Shown here one piece after another: positions 2,867 to 49,664 of a stretch of DNA of 64,000 nt. Source of the stretch: a virus; IMG/VR virus record IMGVR_UViG_3300042907_001596, positions 32,001-96,000 of that record; one strand, written 5' to 3'. The notes beneath the pieces are model-generated. The model was not told the DNA's origin. It saw only the letters and a list, made by a program, of their open reading frames with translations, and made no database searches. Positions within the stretch are counted from its first letter, which is position 1. Every line of letters starts with the position of its first letter. Position numbers and translations under genes: made by a program.

Positions 2867-4104
2867 GTCTGGAACACCGCCTGCTCTCCCACCTGACTGA
2901 CGCCGCAGAGATAGCGCGGGTCTGGGAGATCGGCGTGCGCTCCGAAGTCTTTGAAGAGCCGCTATGCCAGGCCGCGTACAACTTCATCATCGACTACTGG
3001 CTGTACAACCAGATGGACAAAGCACCGACGACGCTGGTGATCGTCACGGAGTTCCCCGGCCTCAAGCTGACCGACGAACTAGATGAGGCAACCTCGTGGT
3101 TGGCCGAGACACTGATGCGCCGCTACGCCACCAACCGGCTCAACGAAATGCTGACCGAAGCCGCCGTCACCGCGCCGGAAGATCCCGTCGGAACCCTCAA
3201 GTCTCTCCAGTCGGCTACTTACGCCGCGACCGAAGTGGTCACCCCCCGGCATAGCCGTTCTGATATGTCGAACATCCACGAGCGCAGGCAACGCTACGGC
3301 GAGCGGGTCGACCACCACGGTCAGGGCATCACGCTAGGGCTGGCCGAACTCGACGCCCACACCAACGGTCTGCTGCCCGGTGAACTGTGCGCCGTCGGGG
3401 CGTTCAGCAAGGTTGGCAAGACGATGTTCCTCGTCAACGCCGCCGTCGCCGCCCGCCGCTCCGGCCGCACCCCGATCATCTTTACGCTGGAGATGAGTTG
3501 CCGGGAGGTGGAGGACAGGATCGACGCGCTGTACTCCGGCGTCTCGTACAACCGGTTCATCCACGGCGAGTTGTCGCCCGACGAGATCGCACTGCTGCAC
3601 CGTAGCCAAGACGAGATGCAGACGCTAGGCCCGCTGTACGTCGAACGCCCCGAACGCGGCGAGCGCACCGTCGCACTGATGGTCAACCGTGCCCGCCAGC
3701 TAGGGGCCGACTACGTCATCATCGACCAACTCAGCTTCATCGACGGGGAGAAGGACAACTATCGGGGCGACCGGCCGTTGACCCAGAAGCACTCCGACAT
3801 CGTGTTCGCGCTGAAAGATGAGATCAGCCGGGAAAGCCGGGGGGCCATCCCTTGCCTGCTGGCCGTCCAGTTCAACCGGGACTCCCTCAACGAGGTCAGC
3901 CTGAAGTCTTTCGCCAACACCTCCGCGATCGAACAGACGGTCGACCTCGCGCTGGGCTTGAGCCGCACCTCCGATATGCGGGCCAACCGGCTGATGCGCC
4001 TCGACGTGCTGGGTGCCCGCCGCTCCGACATTGCCAGCTATTTGCTGCGGTGGGATCTGAGCCACCAAAGTCGGATCAGTGTGGATGAAGAGATCCACGA
4101 CTAG
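2863..4104 (+). CDS. dnaB: DnaB-like replicative helicase
   Basis: AFSKVGKT, FTLEM, IIDQL, AVQFNR, IEQTVD motifs. Confidence 0.88.
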   Translation: MSLEHRLLSHLTDAAEIARVWEIGVRSEVFEEPLCQAAYNFIIDYWLYNQMDKAPTTLVIVTEFPGLKLTDELDEATSWLAETLMRRYATNRLNEMLTEAAVTAPEDPVGTLKSLQSATYAATEVVTPRHSRSDMSNIHERRQRYGERVDHHGQGITLGLAELDAHTNGLLPGELCAVGAFSKVGKTMFLVNAAVAARRSGRTPIIFTLEMSCREVEDRIDALYSGVSYNRFIHGELSPDEIALLHRSQDEMQTLGPLYVERPERGERTVALMVNRARQLGADYVIIDQLSFIDGEKDNYRGDRPLTQKHSDIVFALKDEISRESRGAIPCLLAVQFNRDSLNEVSLKSFANTSAIEQTVDLALGLSRTSDMRANRLMRLDVLGARRSDIASYLLRWDLSHQSRISVDEEIHD

Positions 4105-4129
4105 AAAGGGTGACACCAAGGAGGTGGCG

Positions 4130-4282
4130 ATGAACAAATACTTCGATGCGGAGCTTTACCACGACGACACCTGGGAGGTGTATGACCCAGGCACAGCCAA
4201 AACCATCGCGCTCTTTTACGACAAAGACCTGGCCGAAGACTATATCCGGTGGCTCAACAAGAAGAAGAAGATCCGGTCGTGA
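4130..4282 (+). CDS. small hypothetical protein
   Basis: AGGAGG RBS before ATG. Confidence 0.6.
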   Translation: MNKYFDAELYHDDTWEVYDPGTAKTIALFYDKDLAEDYIRWLNKKKKIRS

Positions 4283-4554
4283 CTCGCAGAGGAGTCAAGC
4301 TCGCCCCCGCACCCCGCCGCGAACTCCCCATCTACCCTCGTCCCTGCCCCGACGACTGCGGGAAGATGCTGACGAATTGGACGCACGCCTGCTTTCCCGC
4401 CCCTTGGTGGGATCCGCCGGGGCTGCCACCCCGCCCGATGGCCGACCGGTGCGCTGCTCATACGCACTGCTCTTACCGCGACGACGACCCCGGTCGGTGT
4501 TCTCTATGCCACGCCACCCCCACCACCTGCTGCTGCGGGAAGACCGATGAGTGA
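4279..4554 (+). CDS. Cys/His-rich hypothetical protein
   Basis: GTGA overlap; many Cys. Confidence 0.45.
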   Translation: MTRRGVKLAPAPRRELPIYPRPCPDDCGKMLTNWTHACFPAPWWDPPGLPPRPMADRCAAHTHCSYRDDDPGRCSLCHATPTTCCCGKTDE

Positions 4555-21898: not shown

Positions 21899-22543
21899 GT
21901 GAGCGCCACCGTGTGCTTCCCCTGGCGGGCGCAGCCCGACCGCCTCGCCGCCCACGATCGCTGCAAAGCGTACTGGGAAGAGGCGGGCTTCCCGGTGGTT
22001 GAAGCCGACAGCGACCCATCCCGGCCGTTTGTGTGCAACGAAGCCCGCAACAATGCCGCCGCGCTGGCCGACACCGACATCCTGATCATCGCGGACGCCG
22101 ACACCCTGCCCGACCACCTCGACCAGATCACCGCCGCGATCAAACTCATCGAAGACGATCGTGCCGACATCGTGTGGCCGTTCACGCTGTACCGCTACAT
22201 TCCCAACGGTTGGGACTCCGCCTTCTCCGAAGCGGCCATCGTGGGGGAAACCTACCTCAGCCCCGGCGGCATCGTGGTGGCTGGACGCGACCCGTTCTGG
22301 CGGATCGGTGGATACGACCCGCGCTTCATCCCCGGTGCGTCCGGCTTCGATGACACCGCCTTCCTTAAGGCGGCGCAGACCCTCACCAGGGTCACCCGCA
22401 TTTACGGCACCGTCTGGTCGTGGGATCACCCGATGTCGGTGGAGCGCCAGTACGACGAAGACAATCCGAACTATCCGCGCTTCCGGCTGTACGAGTATGC
22501 CGACGGTGACCAGGAGTTGATGGTTGAGGTGGTGCGGCGATGA
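21899..22543 (+). CDS. glycosyltransferase, GT-A fold
   Basis: FPWR, NEARN, IADAD, IGGYDPRF, GFDD. Confidence 0.8.
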   Translation: MSATVCFPWRAQPDRLAAHDRCKAYWEEAGFPVVEADSDPSRPFVCNEARNNAAALADTDILIIADADTLPDHLDQITAAIKLIEDDRADIVWPFTLYRYIPNGWDSAFSEAAIVGETYLSPGGIVVAGRDPFWRIGGYDPRFIPGASGFDDTAFLKAAQTLTRVTRIYGTVWSWDHPMSVERQYDEDNPNYPRFRLYEYADGDQELMVEVVRR

Positions 22544-22743
22544 AGAGTGAGCGCCAATTTTCCGCATTGGATCACTACAATTCCGCTGCTGCCAGCCTCC
22601 AGCAGATCGCGGAAAAGCATGACGAGCCTGACTTCGGCGTGGCCGACGCTGCCCTGCTCCTCAACGTCGCGACCACCCATGCCCTGCTGGGGCTGCTGAA
22701 GCTGGGTATCACCGACGCCCGCTTCGCTGGGCGGATGGAGTGA
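22540..22743 (+). CDS. hypothetical protein
   Basis: ATGA overlap. Confidence 0.55.
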   Translation: MKSERQFSALDHYNSAAASLQQIAEKHDEPDFGVADAALLLNVATTHALLGLLKLGITDARFAGRME

Positions 22744-22744
22744 G

Positions 22745-22954
22745 GTGTTGAGGACTCCCGGCCAGGAGTACACCGCTGAGTGCGATGACACGACTTCGCC
22801 GGAATGTGAACACACCACCAAGATCAGCGCCATCAACGACGCCACCGCGCTGTATCTGCTGAGCCGGAAAGGGTGGCTCACCACGGTGGTGTACGGGGCG
22901 GAAATCCGTAACGAACTGACCTGCCCTGCCTGCGCGTTGCGCCGCAATGATTGA
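22745..22954 (+). CDS. small Cys-containing protein
   Basis: CD...C...GW...CPAC. Confidence 0.55.
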   Translation: MLRTPGQEYTAECDDTTSPECEHTTKISAINDATALYLLSRKGWLTTVVYGAEIRNELTCPACALRRND

Positions 22955-30427: not shown

Positions 30428-30527
30428 GACACCCGCCGATAAACTGAAGGTTCACAGCCCCGGCTAGCTTGCCAGAGCGAAAAGCGGACGTTGCTGCACT
30501 TACTCCGTTCGCACCCGCCTGCCGGGG

Positions 30528-30561
30528 CTGTGTGCATCCCCCCTTCGACCAGGAAGGGGTG
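30528..30561 (+). promoter_or_regulatory. putative late promoter CTGT-N21-GAA
   Basis: CTGT 30528, gaaggggtg 30553. Confidence 0.55.
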
Positions 30562-30575
30562 GAGGGTATGGGCAG

Positions 30576-33500
30576 ATGACACGGCGGATTCAGCGGCAAC
30601 GGGAGGCGTTTGCCTATCGGGTCGCTGAGGTTGAGGGCTACCCCCGCGACTACAGCTTGACGACGTGGACGCCGGAAGAGGAAGCCCTCGCCGCCGAACT
30701 AGGCGAACGCCTCCAGCAGAAGGGCATCAGCGGCTTCGGTGCCGACACCATGACCCAAGCGTTGCAGGAACTGATCCTGATGCGCCGGGAGCGCGAGGAA
30801 GCACCGTGGTCGGAAGACTACGACAAAGCGTACAACGACTGGGAAGCCGGACACGAAAGCGACAAGCTGGCCCGCCGGATCGCCACGCGGGCGCTGATGG
30901 CGGTAGTCCCGATGAACGCCCCCGACGGCTATGACCCGGCCGACTACGACCCCCACGACCTCTACGCAGGCAATCCCCCGCACGAAGCTCTGCTCTCCCG
31001 CCTGGAGAAGAAGTTCATGGGCTGGTACGAACAGCACGGCCAGGAGCATCTGAACTACGCCGGACGAGGCCCGCTAGGTAACTGGCACCAGATCGAACAG
31101 TTCCTCAAGATGCACTACCCCGAAGCGCACCGGGGGCTGAACACCGGCTTTGAGGGCGCGATGCCGCTGATTGACTACGGCGACCAACCCGGCCGCGACC
31201 GACGCAAGGTCTTCACTGAAGAAAAGCTCAACAACCTCCCTGGATACGCCACCGGGCCGGAGGCAGTGGCTCAGCACGGTTATGACCCCAAAGAGGTCGC
31301 GGCGGGCATGCTGCTTCTGCACAACCGCACTCACGACCACCGGGGCGGGGACATTGAGCAGGCGGGCATCGACCGGCTGTACGACATTGCCCAGAAGCGT
31401 TTTGAGATGCAGCGGGCGTATGAGCAGCGCCAGAAGACGGCGTACTACGGCGATGGCCTCCGCACCAACCCCAACTCCCCCACCGGCCTGCCCCTGCTGG
31501 GAGATCCCACCCCCGAACTGACCGGCGAGGAAAGCCAGGAGCTTTACGACCAGATCTCTCAGGCCGACGTGCTGGGCCGGGTGAACCAAGAGTTCCACGA
31601 CTGGGCGTACGAGAACAACAAAGAAAACCCGTACGACGAAGAAGGCTCCCTTGGCTGGCACGGCGAGGCGCGAGGCCCGATCGGCTACTGGCCGCACGTC
31701 GAAGACTTCCTCAAGGAGAAATATCCGGCAGCCCACCGGGGCTTGTCGTTGGGCATGGAGGACGCTGGGTATCTGCTCGACGTACTTCCGACCGGCAAGG
31801 GGTGGGACAAGCCCAGCGTTAGAGGCAAGGATCCGTACGAGACGGGCATCGACGCTGTCGCCCAGCATGGGTACGACCCGAAGGAGATCGTCGCCGCCCT
31901 CATGCTGCTGCACAACGACACCTCGCTGTTGCGCCGCAACAAGCAGGGCATCCAAGACGAGGATCTAGAGCGGCTGCACGACATCGCCGCCCGTCGCTAC
32001 AAGATGCAGCGGCAGTACGAAGAGGCCAACGGTGGCCGACGCTCTCCGCGTGACGACGGCGGCGGCATGACAATTCCCCGGCCGACAATCCAGCAGCCGT
32101 GCGTGTGGTGCGGCGAAGAGGCGAAGGGTCACAGCAGCGAGGGGCTGTGCAAGCAGTGCCTGAGTGAAGCGGGCAAGACGGCCCGCACCGCCATGCCGGT
32201 GCCCCGCAGCGTGCCGTCCGGCCCCGGCACCTGGCAGAGGCAGCGCGACAAGCTCAACGAGAAGGCGCAGAAGGCCGGGGTGCCGGTCGAACTGACACCC
32301 AACTTCTCAATGGATCAGGACGACTTCGATGCCCAGGCGTTCCAGCACGAAGAGGAGGGCCGACCCAACGGCTGGTACAACACGCCCGTCGAGTACGAAG
32401 GCAAAGGCGTGCCGGGAGGGATCTCGCACCGCTACCTGGAGGTTGGCAACGCCAAGATCCCGGTGAACTATCTGCTGCACCACGGCGACGACGGCCGCAT
32501 CAACGGCATCTTGTCGCACTTCCCCAAGGGCACCCCGTTTGAGAAGCCGGGGTCGGTCACCGTTACCGTGCATCCGCACCACCGGGATAAAGGTGTCGGG
32601 TCGAAGTTGCTCAACACTGCCGTGGACAAGTTCGGTGTCGACCTCGACCAGCAGGAGTACACCCCGCTGGGCTACGAGCTTTATCGCAACGTCAAGCACC
32701 AGCAGGGCGAGACGGTGCCCAACATCTTCAACGAGCCTGAGCCTCAGCCCAAACCGGCATTGTCTTCGGCCGAGATAGACGCAGAGTATGTCCGGCAGTG
32801 GGCAAAAGGGATAAGGCCGAAGGTCACGAACAACGGCGTGCGGGAAGCTGCCCTCACGCCCGAAGACTATGCCGAAGCCAAGCGGCTATCGGCGTCGGGC
32901 ATCGACCTTCCCGGCCTGAAAGCTCACCACGCCAACTGGGTGCTGAAGGAGAAGCCGATCAACCCGGCTACAGGCCAGCCTCACACACCGGAGTCAGCGC
33001 GAGGCCACTTCGGGTCAGGCATCTTCCCGTACCTGGCGGCGTTCTATCCCAATGCCACCCAGCAGCGGATGTTTGTGGATATTCCGGCGCACCAGCGCAC
33101 CCGCGACGAAGTTGTCAACGACCTCATCATGGACGACGGCAACATGGACAGGATGACGGCCGGGATGACGGCGCTGCATGCCGAACAGAACGATCAGCCC
33201 CACCTGGCCAACATGATCATGCGGATGCACAAATCTCTGGAGTTCCAACAGGACAAGTCTTCCCCTGAGCTACAGAAAATCATGGACGATGCTAGCTTCC
33301 TGCGGAAAGACATCCAGAAGAACGGGCCTGCGTTTGCCGAACAAATGGGCTACAGCTTTGCCCCCGACCCTGGCATGCCGGTCATGCCCGCCCCTGCCAT
33401 TCAGCCGCAACGCGCCCCGATGACGCCGCCGCGCCCGATGGCCCAACCGTTCGCCACCACCCCGATGCCCACCCCGATGCCGCAGCGCAACCCGATGCCG

Positions 33501-40800: not shown

Positions 40801-41962
40801 ACACGGCTACGACCCGCGTGAGATCGCGGCCACCCTGCTGCTGTTGCACAACGACACCCACCCCGGCCGGGAGAATTACCTCAAGAGCGACCAGGCCCGT
40901 CTGCTCGACATCGCCCAGAAGCGACACCAGATGCAGCAGGCGTATGAGGAGAAGCAGAAGGTCGCTGCCTTTCCCTACACCCCTGTGAGGGGCCGTCAAA
41001 ACTTCAGTCACCCGCTGGTCGACACGATCGGCAAAGAGTTCGATGACTGGGCCACCGCTAACGGTGCGGAAAACCCCAACGATCACCCTGACTCCCTAGG
41101 ATATTGGGGCAAGCCTCGCGGGGCCATCGGCTATTGGCCCAACGTCGAAGAGTTCCTAGAAGAGAACTACCCCGAAGCCCACCGGGGCTTGGAGATGGGC
41201 CTGGAGGGGGCCGGATCCCTGCGGGACTACGGTGCGCCGTCCGGCATGGTGCTGGCCCCCGATGACTATGAGCCGCCCGAAGATCTCATGGACTACGCGC
41301 CCTACCCTCCCGAATACGCCGAATACGAGACGGGCGCGTGGGCCGAAGCCCAACACGGCTACGACCCCAAAGAGGTCGTGACGGCACTGCTGCTGCTGCA
41401 CAATCAGACCCACCCGCACCGGTGGGAGCAAGTCAACGCCGACCAAGACGTGCTGATGGACATCGCGCAGAAACGCCACAAAATGCAGAAGGCGTACGAC
41501 GAGCGCATGAAGACCGCCGCCCAACGCACTTGGCACCAACACCTCGCCTCCATCAACCGGCTGGGTGCCGAACTGTCCGACGCCGACGCCGCCATGCTCT
41601 ACGACCACATGCAGAAGCTGTTCCAGCCCATCAAGCCCTCCGGCAAGTGGTACCACGTCTCCCCGCACGCGCTGGCCGACGGCACCGACCTGATCCCCGG
41701 CGGCGGAGACTCCCCCTCCCAATCCTTCTACGACGACGGCTGGGGTGAGGACACCGGCACCCTCACCGACATGGGCCAGGGACGCACCGGCCATGTGTGG
41801 TTGACGCCGGATTTGGACGACGCCCACTTCTGGTCGGCAGCCCTGAGCGCCCCGCACATCTACGAAGTGGATCCGCACGAGGATCCCCGGCCGTGGAACG
41901 GCACCGGTGCCGACGGCTGGGTCGTCCCCGGCGCGAAGATCCGCCGCAAGGTCATCGAATGA
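37898..41962 (+). CDS. large polyvalent protein B (GNAT, Zn fingers, 4 novel repeat domains, Arr-like ART)
   Basis: N-tag RRIQRQAEAFAYRLA; VHPQHRGKGIA; WYHVS..VWLT..IYEVDP. Confidence 0.85.
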   Translation: MVIRRIQRQAEAFAYRLAFLPSHTDSDAPFWLQTTEIPSLNEFDHPAVKEFQEFLDAGLVPPDPKEAVAEYLNHLRPDNRIHYNLLRRYVGEPELDSYPYTMTRPPAPTLPHEPYAEVTYPQGYELDYDDPEPGAHYAGSRHPFDRALAAARFTLAMADTTMWHPRIEQDHRDGHAGWHEGTYRIKGDDGKTIGAMQYSMVPEIEHRPVDRRPPKSIIIDKVFVHPQHRGKGIAQSFVERLHNDFPDYKIDPGATTTHGNGFAEHLRKILPDAEHALIPDYTPNVMDDRASDFYDRTQRGYYRAYSGDEDNEEMEELEANTAPEDDIEDDYDAPAREITPPETEDQLLQRLRNQWPDGVIQHAASVLRYAAALVVDPPTLECNHRTPCAPGTCPQRDIAADPDFYAEFPDPADKEREFQDLYRLQYEDDAADARATNRPSAVEKAEILPPAQPARDILTEFVKERGRRNRRPIVITCPDCKGHRYETIQPGQLRADDCRTCKGEGSFVKPSVEEKLRPWAERLENALYNEFMEWWPQSEASRIRKPEGSGTKWEDRPKEPVTHWLNVEDFLKERYPDAATGANYGGEEAQNLLERAIQERPDPKWLEERGYVGYGNPVTQAMLTLHNRFNLRPWRNKEDRRRYYELMLRHVGPGAAQRQKVAASSEHYEPMDDDFLDGLRKQFDEWAATSPDVVNPDPDGQPRGPVGHWPNIEKFFQEKYPAAYKGLSRGLESAVPALDSDAGDYCPHCTGEGYLLNENPHPADLPRKCLSCSGTGKINDDLVYETGPDAEAKYGYDPKAVAAGLLYLHSESHPYRFHMRQEDHNRLTDIFQKRMKMQRQYEQRTAAPNRTEPLSSSPDTDSIIYGLSSEFDEWAKANNKGNPYDHRVLTTPRDLVPKNWKPRGPVGYWPNIEEFMKERYPAAHRGLSMGFEDADPLLDSGGKHEDGTDLEWLVGKDPYETGPEAVAKHGYDPREIAATLLLLHNDTHPGRENYLKSDQARLLDIAQKRHQMQQAYEEKQKVAAFPYTPVRGRQNFSHPLVDTIGKEFDDWATANGAENPNDHPDSLGYWGKPRGAIGYWPNVEEFLEENYPEAHRGLEMGLEGAGSLRDYGAPSGMVLAPDDYEPPEDLMDYAPYPPEYAEYETGAWAEAQHGYDPKEVVTALLLLHNQTHPHRWEQVNADQDVLMDIAQKRHKMQKAYDERMKTAAQRTWHQHLASINRLGAELSDADAAMLYDHMQKLFQPIKPSGKWYHVSPHALADGTDLIPGGGDSPSQSFYDDGWGEDTGTLTDMGQGRTGHVWLTPDLDDAHFWSAALSAPHIYEVDPHEDPRPWNGTGADGWVVPGAKIRRKVIE

Positions 41963-44900
41963 GGCCCATCCTCCGCCAGCGCGACACCTTCGCGTATCGC
42001 ATTGCCGCGCCGGTCAACCAGAACGTCGTCACCCGACTGAATGACGAGTTCCACCAATGGTGGAAGGACAGCGGCTACACCTGGGATCCGTACGAGCGTG
42101 GTACGGCGAGTGAGGACTACGAGCGCGGCCCGATGGGGGACTGGCCGACCATTGAGGAGTTCCTTGAGGAACGCTATCCCGCCGCCCACCGTGGACTGAT
42201 GATGGGGCAAGAGATCGCCCGCCCCCTCCTCGACGGTGTCGGGCGGGACGAGGAAGCCTTGGGACGATGGGACTCTAATCCGCAGACTCAGCGCAACTTC
42301 AACATGCTCCAGGTGACCCACGGCGACAACGTCCCGCCGTACGAGACGGGGCCGGAAGCGCAAGCCCAGCACGGCTACGACCCCCGCGAGGTGGCGGCAG
42401 CTTTCCTGCTGCTGCACAACAAGACGCACCCGCTGCGCGGCTATCGGGCCGGGGAAGACCAAGCCCGCCTGGACGAGATCGCCCAGGCCCGCAACGCCGA
42501 GTTCGACAACGCCGACATCGACGTGCTGCACGACATCGCGCAAAAGCGGACGAAGATGCAACGCGCCGCCATGCCAGCCGAAGACGCCTACGACAACGCC
42601 TACAAGAGCCAGGGGCACGTTCCACGACCTGTTTCGGTTCAGGGGCCGTGGTATCACGGCACCAGGGAGGATCTGCCGGACGGCACCATCCTTGTTCCTA
42701 GCCCAGACAAAAGCCTGTGGAGGTACTTCGATCGGCCAGGAAAAGAAAACCGTGCCGACTGGGTCTGGATGGACACCGACGCCCACATCGCTAAACAGTT
42801 CAGTAAAGGCGGTCACGTCTATGAGGTAGAGCCGCTGGACGAAGGGCCGTGGGAGTGGAACGGCGGCATGTTACCCGCTGGTTACGCTTCGCCTCGCGCA
42901 CGGATCATCCGAAAAGTGCATACCTATGTGCCGCAGTTGCAGGCCGACGAAGATGGTCAGTTCGGGTGGAAGCGCATCGCCATGCCCGCCCCGGCCCCCA
43001 AGGGTCTGCGCTTTGAGTATGACCCCAACTTCATCCACCCTCACGCCGACTACCTAGGCCGAGTCCAGGCTTACGTCGATGACCATCCGGTCGGCCACCT
43101 GGAGTGGCTGAAAGAAGGCAACCCCCTCAGCATGGTCACCGACCGCAAGCCCGGTGAGGTCAGCTTCATCTACGTCCACCCTAATTACCGCCGCCAGTCC
43201 ATCGCCAGCGAGATGTTCGACTGGGCTAAGGAGAACGCCGCGCCGGATTTGCACCACTCGCAGCGCCGTACGGACTTGGGTGACAAATGGGTCGGCTACG
43301 AGCAGCAGCGTGTCGCCGCCGTAGCCGACGACACCATCGACCGCCTGCGCGGAGAGTTCCACGACTGGTGGAACACCGACGGAACTTCCCCGAAAAAGGG
43401 TCAACCCCTTTGGACTCCCGTCTCCTCCAGAGAAGCCATGGGCTACTGGGGAAATATGGAGCGGTTCCTGTCGGCCCGGTATCCGGCGGCGTCCCGCGAC
43501 AGCCTGTATATGGGCATGGAGCAGGTGGAGCCGCTGCTGCATCAGCGCGACGGCCAGTGGGGTGGTGTGCCCCGCAATGCTGACCCTTACGAGACGGGCC
43601 GGAAGGCTGTCGAAAAGCACGGCTACGACCCGGCGGAGATCGCCGCCGGGATGCTGTATCTCCACAATGATGGTCGTCCCGGCCGGGAGCAATTCCAGCA
43701 CGTCAACCGCAACCTCATCTTAAAGATCATCCGCAACCGGCGCAAAATGCAGAAGGAATACGACAGCAAGCCCCGCCAGCTTGAGCTTCCATTGGACGAC
43801 ACCCTCGACAAGGCTGCCGCCGTCTTAGACTTCGCCTCCCGGCTGGCTATGCCCGCCGAAGACGCCTACGACGGCAACTGGAAGAACCGCAAGACCAGCC
43901 CGCCGGTCGTCGGGCCGTTCTACCACTCATCCGATCACGACCTACCGGACGGCACCATCCTCCTCCCCAACCAGGGGGAGTCGAAGTTCACCGACGACTA
44001 CGAGCGGCGTCCCGGCTGGAAAGAGCGCACCAAGTGGGTGTGGATGGAGCTTGACCCCTCCGGCGGGTGGGGTGAGCACACCTACGAGGTAGAGCCGATG
44101 GATGAAGGGCCGTGGCCGTGGAATGGTGACGGTCGGGCTAACGGCTACACCTCTCCTCGCGCCCGCATCATCCGCAAGATGACGCCCGAAGATCAGCAAG
44201 AACTGATGGACGCTTTTGTCGACCGGATGCACGAAGAGAATCGTCAACGAAGTCAAAACAGACCACGGCAAGTTCGCCTCTACACCCGCACCGCCATGCC
44301 CGCCCCTCTACCGGAGGGCATCACCTTCCACTATCACCCCGACGACAGCACCATTCCGGCGGAACACTACGACGACTTTTATGCACCTGCGATTGAGGCC
44401 CGCCACCACGGCAACTACGTCGGGCACCTGAGTTGGACTGACGGCAGCCCCGAAGACGGTGGCAGGCCGGTGGGCGAAATCAACGGCATTATGGTCAAGC
44501 CCGAATATCGACGCCACAGTGTGGCGACGGCGATGTTCGATTACGTCCGGCAACAGCACGAGCCTGCGATCCACCATTCGGGATTCCTAAGCGCAGATGG
44601 CCGATCGTGGCGTGACTATGAAGAATCTCGCCATAAGACGGCGATGCCCGCCCCTCTGCCGGACGATGTCACCTTCAAGTACCACCACACCAACGACTCC
44701 ATCCCCGAGGGATACAACGGCGTCAACCAAGGCGGATCCCACACCTTCCTCGCCCCCGCCGTCGCCGCGTATAAAAACGACAAGCCGGTCGCGTACGTCG
44801 AATGGTGGCCGACCGACAAGTACCCCAACGCCGCCAAGCACTACCGCTTCATGGACAAAGGCAAGCCGGGGGAGGTGTACTACATCTACGTCCACCCCAA

Positions 44901-45891
44901 CCATCGCCGCAACTCCATCGCCAGCGAGATGTTCCGGTGGGCGAAAGACAACGTCGAACCGGATCTGCACCACTCCCCGAAGAAGAGCGAGCTAGGCACG
45001 AAGTGGGTGAGCTACGAGGAGTCCACGCCGGAGCTTGCCCGCGCCGCCGCCGTGATCCGCTACGCCCAGCAGGTGGTGGCGATGCCGCTCAATCACATCC
45101 CGCCGATGAACCACTTCGATGACCGGCTGTTCAAGAAGCAACTGGACAACCTGCACTACTACGGCGACGAGATCACCGGGAAGCCGGATCGTGCCAATCT
45201 CATTCGCAGCCAGGGCGGCAGCACCATCAACACCGCCGGGGAGCATGCAGTCTTCGTGTCGTTTATCCACCACGACGAGAACGGTGCCCCCACCGGGATC
45301 CTGCACTACTTCCCGACCGGCAGCCGGTCGGCTAAGGAAAAGCCCGGTGGGATTCAGGTGCTGGTGCATCCCGCCCACCAAGGCAAGGGTATCGGCTCCA
45401 AGCTCCTCGACGCCGCAATGGCGGAGTACGGCCCCGAAGCGGAAGGATTCGGTGACTACGTCCCCATCGACCTGGACAACCAGAATGTCACCCCCGGCGG
45501 CAACGCACTGATCCAGCGGTACCTCAAGCGCACCGCGATGCCCGCTGTCGACGCCTACGACAGCAACATCCCCCGCAAGAAGCGCATCAGCGATCCATAC
45601 ATCCCTAACGGGCCGTGGTATCACGGCACCGACCATGACCTTCCAGAGGGAACCGTTCTGACTCCCGGCGGTGGACACTCCAGGTACACCGACACCCTCT
45701 ACAAGCGGTGGCCGCACAAGAATCGGGCGAAATGGGTGTGGTTAGCCCCCAGTCCCGACCTCGCCAAGCGGTGGGGGGAGCACATCTACGAGGTGGAGCC
45801 GGAAGTCGAAGGCCCGTTCCCTTGGAATGGGGACGGCGATATGTTCACCGAGTTCGCCACCCCTCGTGCTCGCATTGTGCGCAAGCTCTGA
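41959..45891 (+). CDS. large polyvalent protein C (2 novel repeat domains, 3 Arr-like ART, 4 GNAT)
   Basis: ATGA overlap with B; N-tag RPILRQRDTFAYRIA; GPWYHGT..YEVEP; VHPxxR motifs. Confidence 0.85.
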   Translation: MRPILRQRDTFAYRIAAPVNQNVVTRLNDEFHQWWKDSGYTWDPYERGTASEDYERGPMGDWPTIEEFLEERYPAAHRGLMMGQEIARPLLDGVGRDEEALGRWDSNPQTQRNFNMLQVTHGDNVPPYETGPEAQAQHGYDPREVAAAFLLLHNKTHPLRGYRAGEDQARLDEIAQARNAEFDNADIDVLHDIAQKRTKMQRAAMPAEDAYDNAYKSQGHVPRPVSVQGPWYHGTREDLPDGTILVPSPDKSLWRYFDRPGKENRADWVWMDTDAHIAKQFSKGGHVYEVEPLDEGPWEWNGGMLPAGYASPRARIIRKVHTYVPQLQADEDGQFGWKRIAMPAPAPKGLRFEYDPNFIHPHADYLGRVQAYVDDHPVGHLEWLKEGNPLSMVTDRKPGEVSFIYVHPNYRRQSIASEMFDWAKENAAPDLHHSQRRTDLGDKWVGYEQQRVAAVADDTIDRLRGEFHDWWNTDGTSPKKGQPLWTPVSSREAMGYWGNMERFLSARYPAASRDSLYMGMEQVEPLLHQRDGQWGGVPRNADPYETGRKAVEKHGYDPAEIAAGMLYLHNDGRPGREQFQHVNRNLILKIIRNRRKMQKEYDSKPRQLELPLDDTLDKAAAVLDFASRLAMPAEDAYDGNWKNRKTSPPVVGPFYHSSDHDLPDGTILLPNQGESKFTDDYERRPGWKERTKWVWMELDPSGGWGEHTYEVEPMDEGPWPWNGDGRANGYTSPRARIIRKMTPEDQQELMDAFVDRMHEENRQRSQNRPRQVRLYTRTAMPAPLPEGITFHYHPDDSTIPAEHYDDFYAPAIEARHHGNYVGHLSWTDGSPEDGGRPVGEINGIMVKPEYRRHSVATAMFDYVRQQHEPAIHHSGFLSADGRSWRDYEESRHKTAMPAPLPDDVTFKYHHTNDSIPEGYNGVNQGGSHTFLAPAVAAYKNDKPVAYVEWWPTDKYPNAAKHYRFMDKGKPGEVYYIYVHPNHRRNSIASEMFRWAKDNVEPDLHHSPKKSELGTKWVSYEESTPELARAAAVIRYAQQVVAMPLNHIPPMNHFDDRLFKKQLDNLHYYGDEITGKPDRANLIRSQGGSTINTAGEHAVFVSFIHHDENGAPTGILHYFPTGSRSAKEKPGGIQVLVHPAHQGKGIGSKLLDAAMAEYGPEAEGFGDYVPIDLDNQNVTPGGNALIQRYLKRTAMPAVDAYDSNIPRKKRISDPYIPNGPWYHGTDHDLPEGTVLTPGGGHSRYTDTLYKRWPHKNRAKWVWLAPSPDLAKRWGEHIYEVEPEVEGPFPWNGDGDMFTEFATPRARIVRKL

Positions 45892-45941: not shown

Positions 45942-46385
45942 ATGACCCGGCGCAAAGCTGTCATCGTAGACGTAGACGGCACCCTCGCGGACGTGCGCGG
46001 GATCCGCCACCACGTCACCACCAAGCCCAAAGACTTCGACGCTTTCCACGCCGCCTCCGCTGATGTTCCCCCGAACCAGCAGGCGATCGACTTCGTGCAG
46101 CGCCACCACGACGCCGGACACGTCATCGTGGTCGTCACCGCCCGCCGCCAGCAGTGGTTGGGCGTGACGCAAGCGTGGCTCGACCAGCATGTGCCGGTGC
46201 CCTTCGACGGCCCCTTCCACCGGGCCGACGACGACTTCCGGCCCGACGTGCAGGTGAAGCGGGACATCCACCGCTACCTCGCCCGCCACTTCGACATCCG
46301 TGGTGCGATAGACGACAACCCCAACGTCATCGCGTTGTGGGACAGCATCGGCATCCCGGTGGAGGTCGTGCCGGGGTGGGAATAG
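45942..46385 (+). CDS. HAD-family phosphatase (PNKP phosphatase-domain-like)
   Basis: DVDGTL, VTAR, R..DD.RPD..VK, IDDN. Confidence 0.85.
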   Translation: MTRRKAVIVDVDGTLADVRGIRHHVTTKPKDFDAFHAASADVPPNQQAIDFVQRHHDAGHVIVVVTARRQQWLGVTQAWLDQHVPVPFDGPFHRADDDFRPDVQVKRDIHRYLARHFDIRGAIDDNPNVIALWDSIGIPVEVVPGWE

Positions 46386-46583: not shown

Positions 46584-46993
46584 GAGACTTCATCCCCTTC
46601 AAGGGCCGCAAGCTCGTCCAGGGCGCACCCCACAAGGTGTACTGGAACCTGCACAAAGACGTGTGGTCGCTGGTGGCCCAGGACGGCCCCGACAAAGGCC
46701 GCGTGGTCGGCCACGTCCCCCAACTGGGGCTGCACGACGTGAAGTTCGTCGTGTCCCAAGCCGGACGGGCGCGGGTGATCCGCGAGGAGAAGAAGAACGT
46801 CCACGCCTTCGCCGTCGGCATCCCGGTCAGCCCCTGGCAGATCCATTCGCTGGCTGCTGGCCCGCTGCGGCAACTGAGCTACAACCCCTACAAGGCGGGC
46901 CACTTCGTGGTGCGCGACACCGGCGCGAAGATCGACGCCGCCGGACTGGTGGTGTTCAACGACGCCGGGAAAGCCTTCGCGGACGCGGAATAA
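46580..46993 (+). CDS. phage hypothetical protein (VYxNLH...KNVHAF type)
   Basis: VYWNLHK, SQAGRARV.REEKKNVHAF. Confidence 0.7.
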   Translation: MRDFIPFKGRKLVQGAPHKVYWNLHKDVWSLVAQDGPDKGRVVGHVPQLGLHDVKFVVSQAGRARVIREEKKNVHAFAVGIPVSPWQIHSLAAGPLRQLSYNPYKAGHFVVRDTGAKIDAAGLVVFNDAGKAFADAE

Positions 46994-47012
46994 TCCCGAC
47001 CACCCTGGCGTT
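46987..47012 (+). promoter_or_regulatory. ECF-type promoter (copy 11), upstream of ncRNA
   Basis: GGAAT-N17-CGTT. Confidence 0.75.
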
Positions 47013-47051
47013 ACATCTAGTGGAGGGGCCAGGAAACTTCCCCCCGGTGAT

Positions 47052-47396
47052 GTTTGAGAACTGAAGAGAGATTCCAGACCTGCGAGGTACCTTGCAAGTA
47101 ACTCAGAAGCGGCGCTGACGGTTAACGACCACGACTCTGATGCAGCAACATCAGCACCTGCCCAGGACAGACACCTTTGGTGGTGCGTCCCCTGGAGAGC
47201 GATCCCTGAACGAACGCCGAGCCTCTTGAGTGAGGGAGTCACCCGCGAGGGTGGCACGGAGAGCGAAATCTGCCGAGAGAGAAGCAGGAGAACGACGGAG
47301 GCACAAAGTAGTCGAGAGTAGCCGGGGCGTGGCCACAATCCGGTGAGGGTAGACCAAATGAGAACGTCGGCTGGAATCTCCCTTCAGTTCTTGAAC
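47052..47396 (+). ncRNA. putative ~345-nt structured ncRNA, family unknown
   Basis: 26-bp closing stem with 2 G-U and 1 mismatch; several internal hairpins; own promoter; no credible ORF. Confidence 0.7.
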
Positions 47397-47410
47397 GGAG
47401 AGGAGTCCCG

Positions 47411-48872: not shown

Positions 48873-49664
48873 ATGCGGGCACTGAAGTCCACAACCATCA
48901 GCTTCGGCCTGGTATCCGTGCCGGTCAAGCTCTACAAGTCGGTGGACTCCCACGACGTGGCGTTCAAGCAGCACCACGGCGGCTGCGGCGGCTCCATCAA
49001 GATGGAGCGGTACTGCGAAGGCTGCGAGGTCAAGCCGGTGCCGTTCGGTGATGTTGTCAAAGGCATCGACCACGACGGCACGCTGGTGCTGCTCGCGCCG
49101 GAGGAACTGAAGGATCTGGAAGGCGAAACCCCGTCGGCCATTGAGGTCATCCAGTTCGTGGAGGCCGACGAGATCGACCCGCTCACCTACGAAGCGGGCT
49201 ACTTCGCCGCGCCGGACAAGACCAGCGTGAAGGGCTACAAGCTGCTCCACAAGGTGCTGACCGAAACGGGTCGGGTCGGAGTGGTGCGGTTCTCGCTCCG
49301 CGCCGGACGCCTGAGCCTGGGTGTCCTGCGGGCCTCCGGTGACCTGCTCATCGTCCACACGGTGGCCTGGCCGGACGAAGTCCGCACGCCGGAGTTCCCG
49401 ATCCTCGACAAAGAGGTCGAACTGGAGCCTGCTGTCCTCGACGCCGCCCGCATCCTGGTGGAGTCGATGACCGGCAGCTTCAAGCCGGAGGACTTCGTGG
49501 ACACCTACACCGGGCGGGTCAAGGAGTTCATCGCGGCCCGCGCCGACGGCGGAGAGTTCATCCCTGCCCCGGCCGAAACCGCTGAGGACATCTCCGACCT
49601 GCTGGCGGCGCTGGAAGCCTCCGTCATCAAGCGGAAGAAGAAGGCCGCAAAGAAGGCGGCGTAA
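48873..49664 (+). CDS. ku: Ku-like DNA end-binding protein
   Basis: ISFGLVSVPVKLY, VVKG, FVEADEIDP, WPDEVR, DLLAALEAS. Confidence 0.92.
   Translation: MRALKSTTISFGLVSVPVKLYKSVDSHDVAFKQHHGGCGGSIKMERYCEGCEVKPVPFGDVVKGIDHDGTLVLLAPEELKDLEGETPSAIEVIQFVEADEIDPLTYEAGYFAAPDKTSVKGYKLLHKVLTETGRVGVVRFSLRAGRLSLGVLRASGDLLIVHTVAWPDEVRTPEFPILDKEVELEPAVLDAARILVESMTGSFKPEDFVDTYTGRVKEFIAARADGGEFIPAPAETAEDISDLLAALEASVIKRKKKAAKKAA

Follow-up and report, generated by a model that had tools for sequence, protein, structure and literature searches.

A gene-free stretch of a 150,440-bp lake phage contains the gene for a structured, multi-helix non-coding RNA of ~345 nt that belongs to a widespread phage RNA family absent from Rfam 15; members of this family are also present in over 200 sequenced mycobacteriophage genomes. 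The RNA is closed by a 26-bp helix, its 5' strand carries a 13-mer that is identical to an actinobacterial motif located just upstream of 23S rRNA, and a hairpin loop holds an 8-nt palindrome that changes in sequence while often remaining self-complementary, suggesting RNA-RNA dimers. The existence of the structured RNA rests on comparative data; its transcription, processing, and function are inferred from sequence alone.

The element and its genomic context

The window analyzed is a 64,000-nt stretch (positions 32001–96000) of IMG/VR virus record IMGVR_UViG_3300042907_001596; all coordinates refer to this window. The phage genome has 63% G+C, and near-identical DNA occurs in many lake-water metagenomes. 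The phage encodes a DnaE-type polymerase, RecA, a DnaB-like helicase, and a primase; its polymerase is closest to those of large actinobacteriophages (Phrappuccino, 53%; Pupper, 46%; cluster C phages, 45–46%). The gene upstream of the element encodes an L5 gp82-like protein, and a PNKP-type phosphatase lies before that.

The element was first noticed in a sequence-only reading, which described a long non-coding stretch behind a promoter copy, closed by a 26-bp stem with two G-U pairs and one mismatch; this observation is confirmed. The two arms pair over 26 positions with 23 Watson-Crick pairs, 2 G-U pairs, and 1 A/C mismatch. The arm occurs only at these two places in the window (none is expected, from 100 shuffles), and the 371-bp stretch containing the element (47040–47410) is single-copy in the genome. 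No start-codon ORF longer than 38 aa lies on the + strand between 46994 and 47410; a + frame that is open for about 88 codons has no start codon and is broken by 2-nt indels in relatives, so coding was rejected. The genome contains 14 + strand copies of a roughly 42-nt repeated motif, GGAATAAT-N-GCGTTAYAnnTAGTGGAGGGG; the copy in front of the element is the only one that is not followed by a ribosome-binding site and start codon within about 45 nt.

No Rfam 15 family matches the element, even at E = 10, and no rRNA or tRNA lies inside it. The fold energy of the single sequence is weak on the + strand (z = −2.4) and better on the − strand (z = −5.3), so the case for structure and for the + strand rests on comparison with relatives, not on folding energy. 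The features are collected in Table 1.

Table 1. Features of the element and its flanks, with the observations that support each.
Position	Strand	Feature	Supporting observations
46987–47028	+	Copy of the repeated promoter-like motif (GGAATAAT..GCGTTACATCTAGTGGAGGGG); overlaps the TAA stop (46991–46993) of the gp82-like gene	Its TAYAnn element resembles the TATAGT/TACAAT −10 boxes upstream of homologues
47025–47043	+	Leader hairpin (GGGG..CCCC) of the promoter module, not of the RNA element	Shared with L020, which lacks the element; other promoter copies carry a similar hairpin
47051–47063	+	TGTTTGAGAACTG, boxA-like 13-mer identical to the actinobacterial rrn spacer motif	TTTGAGAAC occurs once in the phage genome
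47056–47068	+	Family motif GAGAACTGAAGAG	Motif in 24 of 78 members, 1 of 3900 shuffles
47052–47077	+	P1, 5' strand of the 26-bp closing (leader-trailer-like) helix	All 25 modelled pairs covary across 27 homologues
47078–47099	+	P2 hairpin (GACCUGCGAGG-UACC-UUGCAAGU)	Invariant G-U pair
47110–47114	+	P3, 5' strand (CGGCG); encloses the core and the variable domain	100% of cells paired and 5 of 5 pairs covary in 27 sequences
47115–47135	+	Near-invariant core strand 1, CUGACGGUUAACGACCACGAC	Almost identical in all homologues aligned
47132–47138 with 47196–47201	+	P4	Covaries (CUCU/AGAG, CCUC/GAGG, CCUG/CAGG)
47139–47195	+	Variable domain closed by P4	Wholly replaced in L017; much longer in Bxz1 and ScoobyDoobyDoo
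47199–47214	+	Near-invariant core strand 2, GCGAUCCCUGAACGAA	
47215–47219	+	P3, 3' strand (CGCCG)	As for the 5' strand
47222–47255	+	Two hairpins: CCUC/GAGG, and CACCC-GCGA-GGGUG with a GNRA loop at 47245–47248	Absent from Bxz1; in only about 5 of 27 aligned members
47257–47272	+	Hairpin CGGA-GAGCGAAA-UCUG	Conserved in Bxz1 and many contigs; all four pairs change on both sides across 27 sequences; the GA-repeat loop tolerates a 2-nt indel
to 47289	+	Purine-rich strand GAGAGAGAAG following this hairpin	
47293–47369	+	3' domain closed by CGACG (47293–47297) with CGUCG (47365–47369), with inner helices	Helices 15–18 of the model covary
47321–47344	+	Hairpin with the palindrome GUGGCCAC in its loop (47329–47336)	Palindrome in the same frame in 48 of 78 members
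47371–47396	+	P1, 3' strand	Last 19 nt remain as a deletion scar in X8
47397–47405	+	Ribosome-binding site GGAGAGGAG, directly behind P1	
47411–47503	+	ORF of 30 aa, co-oriented	Different genes follow the RNA in relatives

Variants in lake phages

Contigs from other lakes include two informative forms. A relative in sequencing run X8 joins 47040 directly to 47378, that is, it has lost 337 nt (47041–47377) but keeps the last 19 nt of the 3' arm. Run X3 contains a divergent second copy with a different upstream flank containing TACAAT; in this copy, 63 nt of the interior (47136–47198) are replaced by a 21-nt hairpin. We then examined loci encoding members of the gp82-like protein cluster (designated by L numbers) and found three further versions of the element: L017/L018 and L023/L024, whose aligned regions are about 90% identical to the window, and L025/L026, identical within the element. 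L020 and L022 are relatives without the element, and no element was found within 3 kb in relatives whose gp82-like proteins are 55–59% identical (L005–L016). The stretch between the gp82-like gene and a 128-aa gene is a mosaic hot spot in which modules begin and end at the repeated promoter motif. L020 shares the sequence up to 47050 and then continues into its own ribosome-binding site and gene; this sets the left edge of the element at 47051–47053.

Almost every difference among the three lake variants lies in a loop or is compensated. A 2-nt insertion in the 5' arm of P1 in L017 is matched by one in the 3' arm; T-A becomes C-G in P1 of L023; GGCG/CGCC in P3 becomes GTCC/GGAC in L017 and L023; in L023, two swaps occur in the CCUC/GAGG hairpin and one (C-G to G-C) in the hairpin under the GNRA loop, which reads GCGA, GUGA, and GCGA in the three variants; and further swaps occur in the 3' domain. 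One P1 pair, however, changes from A-U to A/C in L017. On this alignment 98% of cells pair and 14 pairs change on both sides, compared with 0–2 when the partners are slid. The 2-nt indels between variants exclude coding.

The internal hairpins listed in the sequence-only reading exist, and those formed by tgcgagg/ccttgca and around the GNRA loop are kept in relatives; however, ctgatg/catcag and ccagg/cctgg lie in a lineage-specific variable domain. The pairing of gctgacg with cgtcggc that was also proposed is not supported, because CTGACG belongs to an invariant core strand and CGTCG pairs with CGACG at 47293–47297.

The possibility that the arms are the terminal repeats of a MITE-like insertion or an invertible segment, with an incidental RNA fold, was considered because the ends are inverted repeats and presence varies among close relatives at one site. 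A match to a MITE with target-site duplication had been named in advance as a refuting outcome; we found no duplication (the flanks are GGTGAT and GGAGAG) and one copy per genome. The forms without the element are explained by exchange of whole modules at the promoter motif (L020, L022) and by the deletion in X8, no contig aligned to the region showed a strand switch, and compensatory changes occur in many internal helices with G-U pairs far outnumbering A/C; thus, this explanation is largely refuted and very unlikely, and the MITE reading is rejected.

A family shared with cluster C mycobacteriophages

blastn (distant mode) of the element and of the neighboring 4-kb gene against 50,697 phage records gave no match; exact-pattern scans of IMG/VR with the arm, the GNRA hairpin, and the P2 hairpin gave nothing; protein-anchored searches of IMG/VR with the two flanking genes gave one distant locus and none, respectively; and a metagenome scan with a translated pseudo-protein of the − strand frame gave 599 pattern matches, none of which was confirmed. 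The element shares 3 of the 148 short words looked up with an RNA of cluster C mycobacteriophages (Ceeclamvirinae), so we tested this link with a covariance model built only from the lake copies (R1). R1 matches Bxz1 22198–22610 (70 bits, E 2e-24), Myrna 3218–3611 (83 bits), and ScoobyDoobyDoo 4084–4496 (81 bits), each over the full length (model positions 1–354). blastn with the Bxz1 copy finds 203 GenBank phage records, 200 of which are at least 99% identical; in these records the RNA is unannotated or overlapped by 'hypothetical protein' calls. R1 finds no member in Mycobacterium phage Phrappuccino or in Gordonia phages Pupper and Skog, although their DNA polymerases are the closest to that of the lake phage.

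The family has two near-invariant core strands (CUGACGGYUAACGACCACGAC and GCGAYCCCUGAAYGAAGG) enclosed by the covarying P3; the alignment revealed the first, a 21-nt strand. Using it as a 19-mer probe, we retrieved 32 IMG/VR contigs, 31 of which were confirmed by R1, and at least 120 metagenome contigs; R1 gave 88 matches in the first 100 of these. Together these searches yielded 78 distinct copies of at least about 230 nt. On 27 distinct sequences, 92.2% of cells pair and 70 of 99 pairs show compensatory change, in 406 cells compared with 46–75 when the partners are slid; the alignment was fitted to a model derived from the lake sequences, which inflates these counts somewhat, but the margin is large. 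G-U cells outnumber A/C cells by 159 to 49; this, the GNRA loop kept on the + strand, and the −10-like boxes upstream of many members identify the + strand as the RNA, and a − strand RNA was rejected despite its better z-score. No Rfam family matches five homologues up to E = 1. Literature searches for the rrn-like motif and for the core strand found nothing relevant, and keyword searches found no description of this RNA; a 2023 catalogue of viral structured-RNA candidates reports only motifs of 29–151 nt, although we could not check whether any of these overlaps the family.

The palindromic loop was overlooked in the sequence-only reading, as was the invariant core. In the same frame of the loop, 44 of 78 members have a perfect Watson-Crick palindrome and 4 more have one with a G-U pair, whereas only 12 of 1560 shuffles give a palindrome; the forms seen are GUGCGCAC, GUGGCCAC, GCUGCAGC, GCGGCCGC, and, with a G-U pair, GGUGCAUC, and GUUGCAAC is seen in one further contig. 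The remaining 30 members had no palindrome in the regular-expression frame used. An 8-nt palindrome cannot fold on itself, so this points to pairing between two RNA molecules; we consider such self-pairing likely, although it is inferred only from the palindromes.

Likeness to rRNA leaders and spacers

The sequence-only reading likened TGTTTGAGAACT in the 5' arm to the actinobacterial rrn boxA within RNase III processing stems, and this likeness is real at the sequence level. A scan of one genome per prokaryotic species with GNTGTTTGAGAACTG gave at least 120 hits, among them Actinobacteria (Streptomyces, Kitasatospora, Nocardia, Rhodococcus, Amycolatopsis, Sinomonas, and Tersicoccus). In seven of these loci, in Streptomyces, Nocardia, Rhodococcus, Amycolatopsis, and others, Rfam placed the motif 25–40 nt upstream of the 5' end of 23S rRNA, where it forms the 5' strand of a 26-bp leader-trailer helix whose partner lies just after 23S. 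The 13-mer matches the E. coli boxA consensus less well. The 16S leader carries the sister motif TTTGAGAACTCAATAGTG, also inside a 27-bp leader-trailer helix; GAGAACTCAAYAGTG occurs at 1–4 copies in 25 of 81 sampled genomes of the host order, with no control hits. These comparisons are with actinobacterial rrn sequences generally, not with the rrn of the lake phage's own host.

In the phage family, 24 of 78 members carry the related pre-16S-type motif, GA[ACG]AAYYNAANAG, in the 5' strand of P1, against 1 of 3900 shuffles. ScoobyDoobyDoo has AACTCAATAGTG, a 12-mer identical to the host leader, and cluster C copies keep the host's U-G wobble at AAC-U and the trailer-like UUGGGU on the 3' strand. 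Host helices and phage P1 helices are both 26–27 bp. However, the full boxA-like 5' half (TGTTT) is specific to this lake lineage; the family shares only the GAnAACUnAAnAG part, about two thirds of members lack even that motif, and the divergent X3 copy reads AAATTGAGAAC at the same place. Recruitment of Nus factors therefore cannot be a family-wide requirement.

Published work supports each step of the analogy. The mycobacterial CL2 leader motif is described as the putative BoxA (PMC10218544); Mycobacterium tuberculosis NusA binds boxC specifically and with high affinity (PMC2724277); and, in E. coli, boxA is sufficient to form the rrn antitermination complex, the RNase III site overlaps boxC, and the pre-23S helix is 27 bp (PMC10250234).

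Transcription context and neighboring genes

Many homologues, Bxz1 among them, have a TATAGT, TACAAT, or TATACT box 8–30 nt upstream of P1, and Myrna has a full TTGCAA-17-TACAAT promoter ending 8 nt before P1. The lake motif, which ends about 24 nt upstream of P1, has TACATC, TATAGA, or TATAGC at the matching place, although a strict sigma-70 consensus scan does not score it. No terminator-like site follows the element, and genes continue on the same strand; a discrete RNA would therefore need processing, and P1 is the obvious substrate.

This arrangement also fits a cis-acting leader, that is, a large 5' untranslated regulator (riboswitch-like or protein-binding) controlling translation or read-through of the genes behind it: the element lies between a promoter-like motif and co-oriented genes, the ribosome-binding site starts 1 nt after P1, and a gene follows on the same strand in Bxz1 and ScoobyDoobyDoo. 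However, the downstream genes differ between near-identical copies (30 aa in the window, 36 + 76 aa in L025, 81 + 76 aa in L017, and 76 aa in L023), and the same small gene works without the element in L022 and in X8. A conserved partner gene was sought and not found; the largest gene cluster covers 5 of 78 loci. The ribosome-binding site is not part of any conserved helix, and a palindromic loop has no obvious role in cis. We consider a cis-regulatory role unlikely though not excluded; the lack of a constant neighbor argues for a stand-alone, trans-acting product.

Interpretation

That the element is a structured RNA of this family is shown by our analysis, and we hold this with high confidence; the remainder of our explanation is inference, and as a whole we consider it only slightly more likely than not. 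In this view, the RNA is transcribed from the repeated phage promoter just upstream as the first part of a transcript that runs on into small genes. Its closing helix would imitate the leader-trailer helix of the host's pre-rRNA, with a boxA-like sequence in the 5' strand in this lineage and the adjacent boxC-type motif across a third of the family. Host Nus factors would then load on RNA polymerase and hold the 5' arm until the 3' arm is made, and RNase III would cut the helix, releasing a ~300-nt RNA and a downstream mRNA with a short leader. The released RNA would keep its invariant two-strand core, pair with a second copy through GUGGCCAC, and act in trans as an RNA-only or RNA-protein particle. 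The rRNA-style biogenesis, including Nus binding and RNase III cleavage, is plausible for this lineage and for the third of the family that carries the motif, but remains tentative.

The interpretation offered in the sequence-only reading is thus partly supported. A structured non-coding RNA on the + strand behind a promoter-like repeat, the covarying closing stem, the absence of an Rfam match, and the rrn likeness all hold; transcription, early timing, excision, and a decoy, scaffold, or ribozyme activity remain suppositions; and the RNA is not a one-off but a member of a widespread family.

A decoy, in which the RNA would mainly soak up host factors that recognize pre-rRNA leaders (NusB-S10, NusA, RNase III, or another rRNA-processing factor) and so damp host rRNA synthesis or maturation during infection, with the folded body mainly providing stability, is suggested by the match of the P1 5' strand to rrn motifs, by the high-affinity binding of boxC by M. 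tuberculosis NusA (PMC2724277), and by a promoter of its own without a fixed neighboring gene. However, in the folded RNA the motif is buried in the 26-bp helix, and most of it would be lost after RNase III cutting; two thirds of the family lack the motif; and the most conserved parts are the core strands and the palindromic loop, not P1. We therefore regard a pure decoy as unlikely, although it is not excluded.

A more speculative possibility, which we consider unlikely on present evidence but cannot exclude, is that phages of actinobacteria make a 'pseudo-pre-rRNA': the closing helix would copy both strands of the host's pre-16S or pre-23S leader-trailer helix so that the host's rRNA transcription and processing machinery (Nus-modified polymerase, RNase III) builds and releases a foreign RNA, which would assemble into RNA-only dimers or larger particles that act on ribosome biogenesis or translation.

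The family matters because a large RNA with strong comparative support is unannotated, or mis-called as 'hypothetical protein', in more than 200 of the best-studied mycobacteriophages and in many environmental phages. It adds a mid-sized member to the small set of 'ornate' RNAs whose loops appear built for RNA-RNA assembly, and it occurs in phages that can be grown and engineered in M. smegmatis, so its function can be tested directly. The likeness to the pre-rRNA helix suggests that phages borrow the rRNA production line for their own RNAs; if so, boxA and leader-trailer signals are a portable packaging device rather than an rRNA-only feature.

Comparison with known systems

The closest relative is the ~380–410-nt RNA of the cluster C mycobacteriophages, which matches the lake RNA over its full length and shares the closing helix length, the two core strands, the hairpin with a palindromic loop, and a promoter or promoter-like motif directly upstream. 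The sequences are too divergent for blastn to detect. The lake copy is shorter because its variable domain is small; it has two extra hairpins (47222–47255), lacks the 60–75-nt insertion of cluster C, and has GUGGCCAC rather than GUGCGCAC as its palindrome; and its P1 resembles the pre-23S helix, with a boxA-like half, rather than the pre-16S helix.

The leader-trailer helices of bacterial rrn operons with boxB-boxA-boxC also lie just behind a promoter and a hairpin and have a boxA sequence and a 26–27-bp helix joining the two ends of the product (a helix of over 17 bp is required; PMC10250234); the phage sequence is identical or near-identical to the host-type motif. In the phage, the helix encloses a ~290-nt RNA and not an rRNA or tRNA, the boxA half is present only in this lineage, and Nus binding and RNase III cutting are assumed by analogy; the element thus resembles an rrn-type leader without being one. 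In lambda-type nut sites (boxA plus boxB on early transcripts), a phage early-type transcript likewise carries a boxA-like signal behind its promoter; however, in the lake phage the hairpin lies before boxA, which is the rrn order, no N-like protein has been identified, and the signal is part of a long helix that closes a large RNA.

Like the large ornate RNAs GOLLD, ROOL, and OLE (Kretsch et al., 2025; PMC12286853), the lake RNA is a phage-associated, multi-domain RNA without a known protein partner. Intermolecular contacts kept by covariation, including kissing loops, are documented for those RNAs; the covariation of the palindrome in the phage family fits a kissing dimer, as judged from sequence alone. 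The lake RNA has no sequence or covariance-model match to these families, is about half their size or less, and is not found beside tRNA genes here.

Genomic context of the RNA

Two proteins encoded on either side of the RNA region, a PNKP-type HAD phosphatase and a Ku-like protein (PF02735 on the identical gene in the L003 locus), have RNA/DNA end-repair functions and lie close to a putatively processed RNA. The only Rfam hit at gathering score in the whole window is int-alpA RNA (RF02996), with 38 bits against a cutoff of 35.8. In Bxz1, the annotated start of gp66 lies inside the RNA; however, a ribosome-binding site (GAAAGGAGG) and an in-frame ATG are located about 35 nt after the 3' end of the RNA, so the gene is probably called 53 codons too long. 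Many cluster C records place one or two 'hypothetical protein' genes over the RNA.

Positions of the repeated motif and of other features (window coordinates unless stated)
Feature	Position	Strand
Repeated motif, within the window	25403, 27970, 28807, 33814, 34407, 35488, 35764, 47022, 47532, 48835	
Repeated motif, further copies outside the window	genome 23022, 105007, 105933, 108674	
int-alpA RNA (RF02996)	30457-30529	+
1364-aa ORF made of several GNAT acetyltransferase modules (polyprotein-like)	41797-45891	+
PNKP-type HAD phosphatase and Ku-like protein	45942-46385 and 48873-49664	
Single A/C mismatch in P1	47067 with 47381	
Extra sequence in the run X8 contig	47496/47497	
Bxz1 gene 66, as annotated	Bxz1 (AY129337) 22486-22875	
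In-frame ATG of Bxz1 gene 66	Bxz1 about 22645	

Mismatch in the closing helix

In the closing helix (P1) of the window, Bxz1, and ScoobyDoobyDoo, a single A/C mismatch (AAG-A-GAG opposite CUC-C-CUU) is kept at the same place in the lake and Bxz1 copies and one step away in others. This mismatch may be a recognition or cleavage mark; host pre-rRNA helices also have one or two fixed mismatches.

Module exchange at a repeated motif

The repeated motif is about 42 nt long (GGAATAAT-N11-GCGTTAYAnnTAGTGGAGGGG); its first bases supply the TAA stop of the preceding gene, and it is followed by a short hairpin, a ribosome-binding site, and a start codon. Three copies on the - strand form palindromic, possibly bidirectional, versions. 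The relative that lost the RNA (the run X8 contig, from another lake) carries 406 extra nt at the end of the small ORF; according to the gene calls for the P0090-type contig, these are two further small genes (55 and 76 aa), another sign of rapid module turnover at this spot. Gene modules between relatives are exchanged exactly at the repeated motifs, which recalls the promoter-stem-loop cassettes that shuffle genes in T4-type phages.
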